This document shows, piece after piece, positions 3,337 through 8,461 of a DNA stretch of 29,074 nt. The DNA lies in the IMG/VR virus record IMGVR_UViG_3300025083_000157, positions 1 to 29,074 of that record. One strand, 5' to 3'. This stretch comes from a virus. Taxonomy: Duplodnaviria > Caudoviricetes. A program made the translations under genes and the position numbers. Every line of letters starts with the position of its first letter. Position 1 is the stretch's first letter. The notes under the pieces are model-generated. The model saw only the letters and a list, made by a program, of their open reading frames with translations, made no database searches and was not told the DNA's origin.

Positions 3337-4833
3337 ATGGCAAATTGGAAAAAGGTAATAGTATCAGGATCAGCTGCCGATCTAGCATCATTATCATTAG
3401 ATACAGCCTTACCTGTAGAATCAGGTGGAACTGGCGCAACATCTTTAACAGATGGCGGAATACTATTAGGTAGTGGAACTGGTGCTATAACAGCAACGGG
3501 AGTATTAACAAATGGTCAATTACTAATTGGAGACGGAACTGGAGATCCTACTGTATCAACAATTACAGCAGGATCAGGTATTTCTGTTACAAATGGAGCT
3601 GGATCTATTACTATTGCAGCAGATGGCTTAGGAGCTGGAACGGTAACTAATGTAGCAACTGCCGGGACAGTAAATGGTTTAACATTAACTGGTGGGCCTA
3701 TTACAACAACAGGTACTATAACATTAGGCGGCACATTAGCAAACGTAGCCAATTCAGCTTTATCGAATAGCACAATTAGCGGAAAGGCGTTGGGAACCGA
3801 TCTAGATGATCTTACTATAGGAGCTGGTTTAGCATCATCTGCGGCATATAACGGAGGAACAGCCCGAACAGCAGCAGTTGGAGCAGGTACTCACATCACA
3901 GTTAACACTAATGATGTTGCCGTTAACACCACTACATTAATCTCTGCCATTTCAGGATCTATCATAGATACAATTGCTGGAGATGTAAACGTTGACACTA
4001 ATGGTGTTTCAACCATTCAATCAACTGCCGTAGAAGGTAGTATGTTAAACACCAATGTTGCCGATACATCTACAATTGAAGTATCTAGTAACACGTTATC
4101 TGTGCTTAAAGTACCTAATGCGTTAACTGTCGACAATGCTACGATACAATTAAATAGTGGAACTACTTTTGATGGATCTGGTGCTAGAACAATTAGTGTA
4201 AAAGACGGCGGAATTGATGCCGATGCATTAGCCGCAAGTGTTGCAGGAACAGGATTAAGTGGTGGTGCTGGTTCAGCATTATCTGTCGATTACGGTTCTA
4301 GTGCAGGCAATGCAGTACAAGGTAACACGACAATAACAGTAAATGTTGCATCTGGTGAATTAACAAGAGACGTAGGATCAGCAGCACAAGCATTAGGAGG
4401 AGGACCTTCTTATACTTTAGGATTAGCAGACACAATTACCGGCGATAGAACATTCTCAGATAATATTAATATATCGGGTGATTTAATAGTTAATGGTACA
4501 GCTTCATTCCAAAATACTACTAATTTACAAGTAGCAGATAGATTTGTATTATTTGCTTCTGGTTCAACTGGTACTGGAGACGGTGGTATTGTTGTGCAGC
4601 AAGCAACTCAAGATGTTGGTGAATTATTTGGTTATGATTCAGGAGAAACACGTTGGGGACTAAAAACTGCGTTTTCAGCAGATAGTGCAGCATTTACACC
4701 AGACGCATTTATGTCAGCAGTAACAACTCTAGCAAGCACTAATCCAAATACATCAGGACCAGCAGCTAGATATAATAAAGCAGGTAACATATACGTATCA
4801 TCAGGAGATGAGAGTATTTGGATATATGCATAA
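3337..4833 (+). CDS. Gly/Thr/Ala-rich virion fibre protein
   Basis: 498 aa with fibre-type segments (LPVESGGTGATSLT, GDLIVNGTASFQNTTNLQVAD). Located in the structural module. Confidence 0.65.
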   Translation: MANWKKVIVSGSAADLASLSLDTALPVESGGTGATSLTDGGILLGSGTGAITATGVLTNGQLLIGDGTGDPTVSTITAGSGISVTNGAGSITIAADGLGAGTVTNVATAGTVNGLTLTGGPITTTGTITLGGTLANVANSALSNSTISGKALGTDLDDLTIGAGLASSAAYNGGTARTAAVGAGTHITVNTNDVAVNTTTLISAISGSIIDTIAGDVNVDTNGVSTIQSTAVEGSMLNTNVADTSTIEVSSNTLSVLKVPNALTVDNATIQLNSGTTFDGSGARTISVKDGGIDADALAASVAGTGLSGGAGSALSVDYGSSAGNAVQGNTTITVNVASGELTRDVGSAAQALGGGPSYTLGLADTITGDRTFSDNINISGDLIVNGTASFQNTTNLQVADRFVLFASGSTGTGDGGIVVQQATQDVGELFGYDSGETRWGLKTAFSADSAAFTPDAFMSAVTTLASTNPNTSGPAARYNKAGNIYVSSGDESIWIYA

Positions 4834-4846
4834 TATTTTATATATT
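4818..4846 (+). promoter_or_regulatory. Putative sigma70-like promoter TTGGAT-N17-TATATT
   Basis: Same -35 hexamer and 17-nt spacer as the sites at 6714, 19137 and 23084. Confidence 0.5.
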
Positions 4847-4870
4847 ATAAAAAGAGTTACGAGTAAATAT

Positions 4871-5077
4871 ATGGGATTTAAGGCAACTAATACAATTATT
4901 AAAAACAAAACTGTACAAACTAAAGCAAAGTCACAACCTGACATTGATTTAAATGAAACAGAAATTGTGACTTTGCTTTCTTTGGTTAAACGATCAACGT
5001 TTAGTGGAGAAGATATCGAATCACTATATAATCTTGTATTAAAATTACAACAACAATATGTAAATATTAAAAAATAA
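4871..5077 (+). CDS. Small hypothetical protein (68 aa)
   Basis: ATG 4871 (MGFKATN) lies downstream of the putative promoter, whereas the track start at 4808 overlaps the previous gene. Helical-looking C-terminus. Confidence 0.6.
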   Translation: MGFKATNTIIKNKTVQTKAKSQPDIDLNETEIVTLLSLVKRSTFSGEDIESLYNLVLKLQQQYVNIKK

Positions 5078-5083
5078 ATAGTT

Positions 5084-5329
5084 ATGATATTATTCTCGAT
5101 TGAAAATTTGTCTATAGAAGAAATTGCAGCAATGAGACAATCATTAAATGTAATTGATATAAAAGGGTCATCGGCTCAATTTATTGCTACACTACAAAAT
5201 AAACTTGATAATGAAATAAGTTCAGCACAACATATTTTAAAACAAGAAGAAGCAAAAAAGACAAATGGCATTAAAGAAATTGAAAATGCTCAACCTGCAA
5301 AAAAATCAACCCGTAAAACAAAATCATAA
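5084..5329 (+). CDS. Small hypothetical protein with basic tail (81 aa)
   Basis: Fills the gap on the coding strand, 6 nt after the previous stop. Confidence 0.6.
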   Translation: MILFSIENLSIEEIAAMRQSLNVIDIKGSSAQFIATLQNKLDNEISSAQHILKQEEAKKTNGIKEIENAQPAKKSTRKTKS

Positions 5330-5331
5330 CA

Positions 5332-5339
5332 TATTTATA
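5332..5339 (+). promoter_or_regulatory. Putative late promoter TATTTATA
   Basis: Recurrent motif, here followed by a structured leader before ATG 5429. Confidence 0.6.
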
Positions 5340-5350
5340 TTAAATTAATA

Positions 5351-5412
5351 GTTGTTCGGCCGAAAGGAAGTAGGCACACGCACGGCATAAGTGTATGTAA
5401 CTAACCAACAAC
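5351..5412 (+). ncRNA. Candidate structured cis-regulatory RNA (riboswitch-like three-way junction)
   Basis: 30/62 G+C in AT-rich intergenic DNA. GTTGTT(C)GG/CCAACAAC closing stem, CC-GAAA-GG hairpin, and TAG-GCA/TGT-AA-CTA stem with an AA bulge. Ends just before SD GAAGGA. Confidence 0.6.
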
Positions 5413-5428
5413 ATGAAGGAAATATAAT

Positions 5429-6664
5429 ATGCCAAATTGGAAAAAAGTTATCATATCTGGTAGCGACGCATCTTTAAATAGTTTAAACGCAACAACCAGC
5501 TTAACAGCTTCAGGTTTAATATATCCCGATACCGATGGGGATAATGGAGACTTTCTATCTACAGATGGAGCAGGAAATTTAAGCTTCACCAGATCCGCAG
5601 TATATGCAAATGTAAAAAACGTATCAGGTGGAACACTACAAAAAGGAACCCCAGTACACGCAAATGGAACAGCAGGTAATGCCTCTGAAGTTATAGCAGC
5701 ATCAGCATCAGTTGCTTCTACGATGCCTGCAACCTATGTACTTAATGAGACTTTAGCAAACGATGCTGAAGGTTTAGCAATAATCACAGGATATATAAAT
5801 GGTGTAAATACTTCACTTTTTGGAGAAGGAGATGTAATATATGTAGGAGAGAGTGGTGGGTTTACAAATGTAAAACCACAAGGATCCGATAATTTAATAC
5901 AAAACCTAGGAGTAGTTAGTAAGGTAGATGCAACAAATGGTTCAGGATATGTTTATGGTTCAGGTAGATCAAATGATGTACCAAATTTACCAGAAGGAAA
6001 GGTTTGGGTAGGTTCGAGTACTTACTCTGTAACATCTTCTATACTAACTTTAGATGAACCAAATTCACAAGCACGTATAGCAGGTTCATTAGTAGTATCG
6101 ACTGATATTACTGCTTCCGGCGCTATGAGGTTATCGGGTGAGTTACAGGTTACAAATAAGGCCCACGTAACTACAAATTTTTTAGCAGGAGAAGATGCTC
6201 TTCCTAACTCAACATATACATTAGCAAATGGAGCAACTTCAGCAATAAATCCTGGTGATTTCAACTCACAAACCTTACAAGGACAAGTTTTAACATCCCA
6301 ACAAGCTGGAGTATCTTTAACTGAAGGACAATTAATTGTTAAAGCAGCAAATAATAGATGGTATCCTGCCGATGCTAATTCTACTAGTACAACATATCTT
6401 ATGGGAATTGCACTTAAAACAGTGGGTGGTGGATCTAATACTGATGTTTTGATAGATGGTGTTATAGCAATGGATGATTCTTATCTTGTAGTTAGTAGTA
6501 TTGGTGAACCATTATATTCATCAACAACAACAGGAGAAATAACAAATGTAGCTCCTACAGGTACTGGGGATATAGTTAGAATTGTAGGTCATTACATAGG
6601 TGCTTCATTTGACGGAGAGTATATGATTACTTTCAAACCAGATGGAACATGGATAGAATTATAA
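5429..6664 (+). CDS. Virion fibre/decoration protein with two tandem capsid-cement-like domains
   Basis: 411 aa. N-terminus shared with the 3337 gene. Two similar units (FGEGDVIYVGESGGFTNVKP..IQNLG and IGEPLYSSTTTGEITNVAP..VRIVG). Confidence 0.6.
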   Translation: MPNWKKVIISGSDASLNSLNATTSLTASGLIYPDTDGDNGDFLSTDGAGNLSFTRSAVYANVKNVSGGTLQKGTPVHANGTAGNASEVIAASASVASTMPATYVLNETLANDAEGLAIITGYINGVNTSLFGEGDVIYVGESGGFTNVKPQGSDNLIQNLGVVSKVDATNGSGYVYGSGRSNDVPNLPEGKVWVGSSTYSVTSSILTLDEPNSQARIAGSLVVSTDITASGAMRLSGELQVTNKAHVTTNFLAGEDALPNSTYTLANGATSAINPGDFNSQTLQGQVLTSQQAGVSLTEGQLIVKAANNRWYPADANSTSTTYLMGIALKTVGGGSNTDVLIDGVIAMDDSYLVVSSIGEPLYSSTTTGEITNVAPTGTGDIVRIVGHYIGASFDGEYMITFKPDGTWIEL

Positions 6665-6762: not shown

Positions 6763-7032
6763 ATGTCAACTAAAAAACTGGACAAAAAAGATTTAGATGC
6801 AATACAATCTATTGGTCAACGCTATGATGAACTAACAACGACACTAGGAAATTTAGAAATTGAAAAATTTACACTGTCGTTGCGGGTAGAAGAACTTGAA
6901 AAATTACATGCGACTGAATTAACTAAATTTGAAACAATACGTTTACAAGAACAAGACCTAATGACAGATCTTAAAGAGCGATATGGCGAAGGATCAATTG
7001 ATATCAATACAGGTACATTTACACAATCATAG
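6763..7032 (+). CDS. Small coiled-coil protein (89 aa)
   Basis: Heptad-like Leu/Glu pattern ending in LKERYGEGSIDINTGTF. Has its own promoter-like site. Confidence 0.7.
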   Translation: MSTKKLDKKDLDAIQSIGQRYDELTTTLGNLEIEKFTLSLRVEELEKLHATELTKFETIRLQEQDLMTDLKERYGEGSIDINTGTFTQS

Positions 7033-7079
7033 GTTTGGGATTAAATCGCTATATTTATAATAAACAAAATATAGCAGAA
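7030..7079 (+). repeat. Direct repeat copy 1 (50 bp, contains TATTTATA at 7052-7059)
   Basis: 46/50 identical to 8412-8461 by manual alignment. Confidence 0.9.
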
Positions 7080-7142
7080 AATATTGCAACTACTGGTTAT
7101 ACAATCACCTTCAGACCATATGGAACATGGATTGAAATATAA
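7074..7142 (+). pseudogene. Orphan 3' fragment of a homologue of the 5429-6664 gene
   Basis: Translates AENIATTGYTITFRPYGTWIEI* versus YMITFKPDGTWIEL*. 7098-7148 matches 6620-6670 at 43/51 nt. No ATG. Confidence 0.8.
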
Positions 7143-7163
7143 AAATTAATTAAAAAATAAAAT

Positions 7164-7475: not shown

Positions 7476-8114
7476 ATGCCAGTACAAGATTCATATTATA
7501 TAAAAGCTAGAGCATCAGGAGGAGGTGGTTCTGTTGGAGCAAAAATACCGAAAACTGGACAGACAGTATCTTATGCTACTGGTGATGATGGTGATCTAGA
7601 AGCTGGAAGAGCAACAGATTTTTTCACTCTTCCTAGTAATAACCCTCATGGAAATACGAACAGATTTACAGACTATTTAGGAGGTCAGTCCTATAGTATA
7701 GGAGTTTTAGTTGATTGGTCTACTTATGATGGGTCGACTGTACTTGGGTATAGTGGCGCAACTGGAACAAATTCAACGGTTACTTGGTCTTCCGCTTTAA
7801 GCTTAGCTAGCAGCCATTCAGTGAGTTCGTTTACTTCTGGGTGGAGGTTACCAAATTTGAATGAGGCTGTCAATGTTTGTAATTTTAGTCTTAATCCACC
7901 ATTATCTTATTCAATTTGGTTTAAAAGTGCTTTTGGTGGTGTTTGGGCTAGAAGTGCAATGTGGACTTCAACAACATCTCCACGATGGTCTGGAGGAGCA
8001 TTAAGGTATAGAAATGATATGGGGATTTTTGATTTCCAAGGTAAAACAAACCTATCAGCAAAAGATGGATTTGCAGTAAGAGATTTCACAGTAACAGGAA
8101 CAACATTAACATAA
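7476..8114 (+). CDS. DUF1566/Lcl C-terminal (C-type-lectin-like) domain protein
   Basis: PKTGQTVSYATGDDG, TWSSAL, GWRLPNLNE, WTSTT and a terminal AVR are the characteristic motif series of this family. Confidence 0.75.
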   Translation: MPVQDSYYIKARASGGGGSVGAKIPKTGQTVSYATGDDGDLEAGRATDFFTLPSNNPHGNTNRFTDYLGGQSYSIGVLVDWSTYDGSTVLGYSGATGTNSTVTWSSALSLASSHSVSSFTSGWRLPNLNEAVNVCNFSLNPPLSYSIWFKSAFGGVWARSAMWTSTTSPRWSGGALRYRNDMGIFDFQGKTNLSAKDGFAVRDFTVTGTTLT

Positions 8115-8411: not shown

Positions 8412-8461
8412 TAGGTTTGGGATTAAACCGTCATATTTATAATAAACAAAATATAGGAGAA
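8412..8461 (+). repeat. Direct repeat copy 2, comprising the tail sheath promoter motif (TATTTATA 8434-8441) and SD AGGAGA
   Basis: 46/50 identical to 7030-7079. Confidence 0.9.

Follow-up and report, generated by a model that had tools for sequence, protein, structure and literature searches.

The question raised by this locus is whether the 62 nt between a promoter-like motif and the gene of a 411-aa protein form a functional RNA, to which kind of RNA it would belong and what it might do for the gene behind it. The window, i.e. the whole stretch of 29,074 nt analysed here, comes from a large phage with a contractile tail (tail sheath) and covers its structural and replication region; by sheath similarity, the isolates closest to it are the Flavobacterium immuto phages and Microcystis phage Mel-JY01. 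An earlier note, made from the sequence alone, had folded the 62 nt by hand into a three-way junction, had compared this junction with the c-di-GMP-II riboswitch and had named a protein-binding regulatory leader as fallback. The features of the locus are as follows (positions in the window, all on the + strand):

3337..4833, +: upstream paralogue with MANWKKV start and no leader, which serves as internal control; weak match to phrog_31660, tail fibre (E 7e-6)
4832..5329, +: pair of related small genes (ends at 5077 and 5329), which travel with the element; candidate binder or chaperone
5332..5339, +: late-promoter-like motif TATTTATA, with its end 11 nt upstream of P1
5351..5412, +: complete leader RNA with the three-way junction (50.5 bits with model R1; covariation)
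5351..5359, +: 5' strand of P1, with six outer pairs, bulged 5357 and two inner G-C pairs; partner 5405-5412
5360..5367, +: P2 hairpin with GNRA loop; 2-9 pairs among homologues
5368..5371, +: junction J2/3 (AAGU), near invariant
5372..5402, +: P3, with 5372-5373 paired to 5401-5402, a variable 2-nt bulge at 5399-5400 and the stem 5374-5381/5391-5398, which opens with G-U
5384..5389, +: GGCAUA, loop of P3; complement of UAUGCC around the start codon, with which a loop-tail pseudoknot is predicted
5403..5404, +: junction J3/1 (AA), near invariant
5405..5412, +: 3' strand of P1; its last base lies 16 nt before the AUG
5416..5420, +: SD-like AAGGA, read from the window sequence
5428..5433, +: UAUGCC, made up of base -1, the start codon and the first two Pro-codon bases; predicted to pair with the P3 loop
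5429..6664, +: 411-aa gene; about 19 N-terminal residues conserved, body exchangeable

The three-way-junction leader is a conserved RNA family

The 62-nt element is present in the sequence as the earlier note had described it and has a GC content of 48.4% compared to 34.1% for the window. Its minimum free energy (MFE) fold is a three-way junction and contains P1 with the bulged C5357, P2 at 5360-5367 and the AA bulge at 5399-5400, all of which the manual fold had predicted. The register drawn by hand for the lower end of P3 (G5374-U5398, C5375-G5397, A5376-U5396) is also the one that homologues keep. Model R1, whose training set included the window copy, scored 50.5 bits at the element and 13.2 bits at the next best match in the window. 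Folding energy alone does not rise above chance (z -1.28; 23 of 200 shuffles were equally good), so that the proof of the element lies in covariation.

For this purpose the window and 79 homologues, drawn from a family set of 231 distinct homologous elements of aquatic phages, were aligned with MAFFT (80 rows). In this alignment 94.5% of the cells pair and two-sided changes occur at 12 of 17 pairs. None of 500 shuffles reached any of the measures; the score was 0.429 compared to 0.171 for shuffled alignments and at most 0.113 for slid controls. Relatedness of the rows inflates the shuffle test, and the slid control and the counts of pair types agree with it. The covarying three-way junction in leaders of MPNWKKV-type genes, which the earlier note had anticipated, is thus a real, conserved RNA family.

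Over all 231 elements, the outer pairs of P1 are variable, mostly A-U or G-U, and pairs 1-5 are kept in 217-229 elements. Of the two inner P1 pairs, the second is G-C in nearly all elements (226; A-U in the other 5). At the first pair of P3, 167 elements have G-C, 64 have A-U and none has a mismatch, and the pair opening the P3 stem above the bulge is G-U in 215 and A-U in 15. P2 opens with C-G in 231 of 231 elements, a position that was fixed by the search patterns together with the core letters. Among the four-base P2 loops, 112 of 172 are of the GNRA or UUCG type. The G-U swaps and these loops point to an element which would act as RNA and not as DNA. A long arm is found on P3 in 52 elements and on P2 in 53, and never on both. 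U5371 and A5403 never covary, so the Watson-Crick character of this pair is not established.

Because the core letters were fixed by the search patterns, leaders chosen by their coding sequence were re-parsed by structure only. The parser read 90 of 117 leaders; the 27 missed ones comprise seven first paralogues, one leader behind an endonuclease gene, one too short and 18 failing the pair limits, which still show the core letters in the printed sequence. Without fixed letters, J2/3 was AAGU in 89 of 90 leaders and J3/1 was AA in all 90 (230 of 231 in the family set; UA was seen in two leaders). The P3 bulge, which the earlier note had read as a match to the c-di-GMP-II core, is AA in the window and in only 57 of 90 leaders and 146 of 231 elements, and it does not hold as such a match; one-base bulges occur in three homologues (L624, L685, L735). 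The core amounts to about 15 fixed bases with free peripheral hairpins and two bulges, each two pairs away from the junction.

The element precedes one type of phage gene

A search with the 19-base core yielded 54 viral loci. An open reading frame starting with MP[NS]WKK follows about 70 nt downstream in 53 of them, and the contig of the last locus ends just past the same start. A second search by coding start alone gave 140 distinct leaders, in which the element lies before 67 of 76 MP genes and before none of 64 MA/MS paralogues. A covariance model run on the 73 negatives detected two more MP cases with long spacers (69 of 76 in total) and nothing above 13.6 bits in the remaining ones. The seven MP genes without the element resemble the first paralogue, and three of them share a contig with a second, element-bearing gene. 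Hits of the core pattern, estimated by scanning at about 860 viral and 2,900 metagenome stretches, lie directly before an M/V-P-x-W-K/R-K/R start in 113 of 120 viral and 108 of 120 metagenome cases. The others are four MPNWNK starts, six long spacers, four endonuclease-like insertions, two truncations and three unstructured chance hits.

The long spacers measure 55-130 nt before an MP or VP start (L378, L459, L481, L542, L502, L572), and in L378 and L459 the spacer sequence is conserved between both. Homing-endonuclease-like open reading frames stand directly 3' of the element in L369, L507, L538 and L437; from their motifs we take three of them to be HNH-like and one GIY-YIG-like. The three HNH-like frames start with MPN, as does the usual gene, and in L369 the fibre gene comes after the endonuclease-like frame with a strong SD of its own.

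When phage genomes were searched as a whole, nine of ten contained one strong copy, and in Microcystis phage Mel-JY01 no copy of the element was detected. (Its head cluster holds a gene annotated as ribosomal protein S21, L363 10198-10425.) The cultured Flavobacterium phage immuto 2-6A carries the element before a gene annotated as putative tail fibre-like. As a cultured phage-host pair carrying the element (Flavobacterium phage immuto, strain LMO8) is available, its function is directly testable.

Genome-wide searches gave 38 pattern hits. Six outer P1 pairs were present in three of them, all before the same phage-type gene; the other 35 lack the full P1 and were rejected as copies, two of them (L324 and L343) with scores no higher than 22.5 and 25.5 bits. 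The element and its gene also occur on contigs of genomes labelled Pelagibacter, Bifidobacterium and Flavobacteriales (L334, L347, L356), which are likely phage contigs binned along. A further 300 genomes, sampled from the order and the phylum to which the Flavobacteriales-labelled genome G009 belongs and scored with filters (hits in 1 of 151 genomes in the order search and 3 of 151 in the phylum search), gave only two weak hits. These two Bacteroidota hits, of about 25 bits and located inside an open reading frame, were dropped as chance. No copy was found before host metabolic or signalling genes in the genomes searched.

The gene behind the element is conserved only at its beginning. Over the 231 downstream proteins, conservation is restricted to about 19 N-terminal residues, and in five close relatives with leaders of 99-100% identity the body becomes unrelated after 10-20 codons. 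The earlier note had called the 411-aa product a fibre protein. The gene of a relative at the same position is annotated as putative tail fibre-like; the protein itself has no Pfam hit and no solved relative and falls in a PHROG of unknown function. Its cement-type domain look-alikes stay below the naming bar, and the single-sequence structure model is unusable (pLDDT 33). The product is likely a virion fibre or decoration protein.

Upstream of the element, the profiles of the two small genes (4832-5077 and 5084-5329) share 205 of 229 hits, and at least one small gene precedes 97 of the 108 elements with at least 550 nt of sequence. A tree of the upstream protein (89 rows, 78 columns) clusters the arm types and is too weak for counting origins.

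The motif TATTTATA is not enriched by count in the window (10 copies compared to 7.9 expected). Its usual distance of about 30 nt from an ATG, as proposed before, applies to five of the eight + strand copies, which lie 23-33 nt before an ATG (29 nt at site 11005, as taken from the printed sequence). The copy at the element, 97 nt before the ATG, is indeed far away, but it is not singular in this respect, as two other copies lie at 112 and 88 nt. The motif may act as promoter, with the leader transcribed from there. A similar motif was found at most 45 nt upstream of the element in 170 of 231 homologues. A nearby promoter-like motif precedes only 4 of the 53 long-P2 elements (e.g., L173, L183, L356) and an SD follows 45 of them, the reverse of other groups; long-P2 copies closely trail the upstream stop codon.

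Comparison with known RNAs

Searching Rfam with the window gave no hit at the gathering score and one spurious snoRNA (E 9.4). For 20 homologous loci 13 weak hits were obtained, none of them over the element. Screening of literature by title and opening of the abstract found no paper describing it, and a 10-base DNA string of the element led to unrelated fields only, among the matches listed. In the set of 8,495 DNA-virus candidates of PMC10690425 the element is absent from the four supplementary files compared; the alignment files, which lie outside this comparison, may hold it. The RNA family is new to Rfam, and it is a widespread one with an invariant core of the size of a ligand pocket.

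The kinship with the c-di-GMP-II riboswitch (RF01786; 3Q3Z) suggested by the earlier note was not supported by the comparison: the model has no match with E ≤ 10 in the window and none over the element in the 20 homologous loci. The likeness concerns the local layout only, which consists of a three-helix junction and a short purine-rich strand across a two-base 3' bulge, followed by unpaired bases and the top of P1. In the pocket of c-di-GMP-II, according to excerpts of PMC13715770, A69 binds the upper ligand base and G73 the lower one, a third adenine intercalates, and the pseudoknot stem P4 supplies all three bases, next to an A-U pair in P2. At the position of G73, mapped by the analogy of the earlier note, the element has A in 230 and U in 1 of 231 cases in a parse that admitted only A or U there, and A in 90 of 90 leaders read without fixed letters, never G. 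The position of the intercalating adenine, which we take to be A70, is U in 62 of 231 elements. Whereas P2 of c-di-GMP-II opens with A-U by the ligand, P2 of the element opens with C-G, and neither an A nor an A-U pair occurs between P1 and P2. The pseudoknot P4 of c-di-GMP-II is bridged by P3; the element is nested, has neither this pseudoknot nor a kink-turn and measures about 45-65 nt compared to the 84 positions of the c-di-GMP-II model. Membership was rejected on the G73 position, the variable letters and length of the bulge, the nested fold and the missing model match.

The glutamine-I riboswitch (glnA RNA) has a three-way junction with an E-loop. When the element was compared with it, AAGU opposite AA was near invariant and the flanking pair was a Watson-Crick R-Y pair; the AGU-containing junction strand may, as we assume, form a bulged-G-like turn as in glutamine-I. 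According to excerpts of PMC6698751, the ligand is contacted in P1 by the C1:G59 pair and the G22/C58 triple. These contacts in P1 are not kept in the variable, AU-rich outer P1 of the element.

The motifs GP20-a and GP20-b (RF02991, RF03003) resemble the element as candidate cis-regulatory RNAs directly before one phage gene family, and six further candidates upstream of GP20 are described in the part of PMC10690425 covered here. They precede another gene and showed no Rfam match here, and the element adds arms complementary to the start codon. T-box-like pairing with tRNA was dropped as a candidate, as the long-P3 apex is usually without UGGN.

Initiation region and possible function

Across homologues, the element has a fixed place 12-24 nt before an AUG-CCN start. 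The median distance from the end of P1 to the AUG is about 11 nt, and in 212 of 231 elements P1 bases lie at most 18 nt from the AUG, i.e. within the 18-nt initiation footprint. Despite near-perfect pairing, the predicted probability of closure of P1 and the junction has a median of 0.33; ViennaRNA may underrate multiloops, so that P1 may be steadier than computed. Opening of the region from -18 to +12 costs a median of 4.7 kcal/mol compared to 3.1 for 64 paralogue leaders. The marginal closure of P1 and the costlier opening fit a helix that would depend on a stabiliser and would block ribosome loading.

In addition, an apex of the GG(C/U)(A/G) type is present in 50 of 52 long-P3 and 47 of 53 long-P2 elements, so that 97 of 231 elements are complementary to the start. 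Of the changes at the four pairing positions, 12 are compatible with wobble pairing and two break the pairing; the compatible ones are transitions and represent few independent events. In the window, which belongs to the long-P3 subfamily, the duplex 5384-5389/5428-5433 is predicted at -8.9 kcal/mol, and the P3 apex is 92% identical in 20 phages compared to 45% identity of the neighbouring protein. The long-P2 duplex (-7.4) lies inside the tail of the downstream-window control (5th percentile -7.7). As 126 of 231 elements have no long arm, including that of the cultured phage, the pseudoknot is not universal. The proline at codon 2 could also reflect a constraint at the protein level, since the seven leaderless first paralogues likewise start with MP. 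Dinucleotide repeats in P3 (window 5374-5398) allow the stem two registers, two bases apart, which leave a loop of 7 or 9 nt. Only the 9-nt-loop register, which lies 4.8 kcal/mol above the MFE fold, would give space for the pairing with the start codon. A conserved competing fold did not appear for the window element. A 4-codon upstream open reading frame (5413-5427) was rejected as a conserved feature, as an ATG occurs in only 26 of 231 spacers and its frame varies.

AGGA or GGAG is found in only 90 of 231 spacers between element and AUG. Bacteroidetes ribosomes ignore SD sequences, as stated in an excerpt of PMC7797042. Masking of the AUG instead of the SD would suit Bacteroidetes hosts.

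The leading explanation, to which we give a chance somewhat short of even, is a translational off-switch that would be stabilised by a protein, so that the fallback of the earlier note provides the best reading here. It is preferred because the element serves one structural gene family and was not found in host settings among the genomes searched. What is seen of an operator is a conserved cis structure near the start of one gene family, which reaches the initiation region. The gene 32 pseudoknot and the gene 43 hairpin of phage T4 are operators at which the bound protein blocks initiation, according to excerpts of PMC3014915. Like these, the element is a leader structure upstream of a phage gene, and by this analogy it would likely work in a similar way. 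The T4 repressors, in contrast, are nucleic-acid-binding replication proteins, while here a three-way junction stands before a likely virion gene.

For such an operator, we infer repression by the folded state and a protein as ligand. From its binding site at the invariant junction, the predicted protein would hold the weak P1 helix closed, and the clamped P1 would block ribosome loading; in the long-P3 subfamily the start codon would additionally be locked in the predicted loop-tail pseudoknot. The most economical binder would be a free assembly component of the cassette, i.e. the fibre N-terminus or either of the small upstream proteins. The leaderless paralogue also has a WKKV N-terminus, so this peptide alone does not explain the specificity. 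For the second small protein a helical hairpin with a basic tail is predicted; its model matched only uncharacterised or chance helical viral proteins, none with E ≤ 0.001, and by sequence no convincing solved relative of the small upstream protein was found. Neither candidate binder resembles a known RNA-binding fold. Feedback of this kind would match the output of fibre to the need of assembly, whichever body is swapped in. With a likely virion fibre under such control, translational feedback would reach beyond replication proteins, and the leader would illustrate how the expression level of an exchangeable gene is held.

Clearly less probable is a new class of small-molecule riboswitch, in which a host metabolite or nucleotide signal closes P1 and the pseudoknot and turns the fibre gene down. 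The compact fixed core with free hairpins, the two bulges, the marginal P1 and the pairing at the start site are the look of translational aptamers, and c-di-GMP-II variants can change their ligand, as excerpts of PMC13715770 state. However, only one structural gene family is served and no copy was found before a host metabolic or signalling gene in the genomes searched, the element does not keep the residues that form the pockets of c-di-GMP-II and glutamine-I, and the bulge varies in letters and length. A class confined to phages, in which the host signal would close P1 and lock the start codon in a pseudoknot built on different arms in two lineages, so that the amount of variable surface fibre on the progeny would follow the state of the infected cell, is rated marginally lower than the general form; a c-di-GMP-II-like pocket for a cyclic dinucleotide makes up a small share of the general form. 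If a metabolite is bound, the element would represent a new riboswitch class with which the phage adjusts the surface of its progeny to the physiology of the host.

It is rather unlikely that the leader is a ligand-free structural tuner, i.e. a Mg2+-folded junction which would set a fixed translation rate or protect the 5' end, giving a suitable amount of whichever fibre body is swapped in, or could even enhance initiation. The position right behind a promoter-like motif in 170 of 231 homologues, the lack of a conserved competing fold in the window and the keeping of the leader across switches of the gene body in five relatives would agree with this. A fixed brake, however, needs no invariant junction letters or base pairs, and a nearby promoter motif is missing from 49 of the 53 long-P2 elements.

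That the late transcript is cut before the fibre gene, by a self-cleaving ribozyme or at a processing site, appears improbable: a small invariant core and the long-P2 copies close behind an upstream stop without promoter motif would suit it, but no catalogued ribozyme model of Rfam matches the element, the junction sizes of 0/4/2 differ from those of the hammerhead core, and control of translation would better account for the fixed spacing to the AUG and the complementarity to the start codon. Slightly weaker still is a non-regulatory role as DNA recombination anchor for fibre swapping or as structural or packaging RNA, for which the leader and first codons as conserved left edge of the swapped module and the endonuclease-like genes right behind the element could be cited, since recombination needs identity while the stems vary by compensation, and G-U pairs and GNRA loops are features of RNA.

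Downstream of the 411-aa gene, a direct repeat of about 45 nt containing a promoter-like motif (7030-7074 and 8412-8456) flanks three small genes. A 212-aa gene inside this insert (7476-8114) has a weak match to an Lcl C-terminal domain (E 6e-6, below the curated cut-off). The 3' end of the 411-aa gene recurs in decayed form at about 7095-7148, and together with the repeat-flanked insert this copy is likely the scar of a cassette swap.
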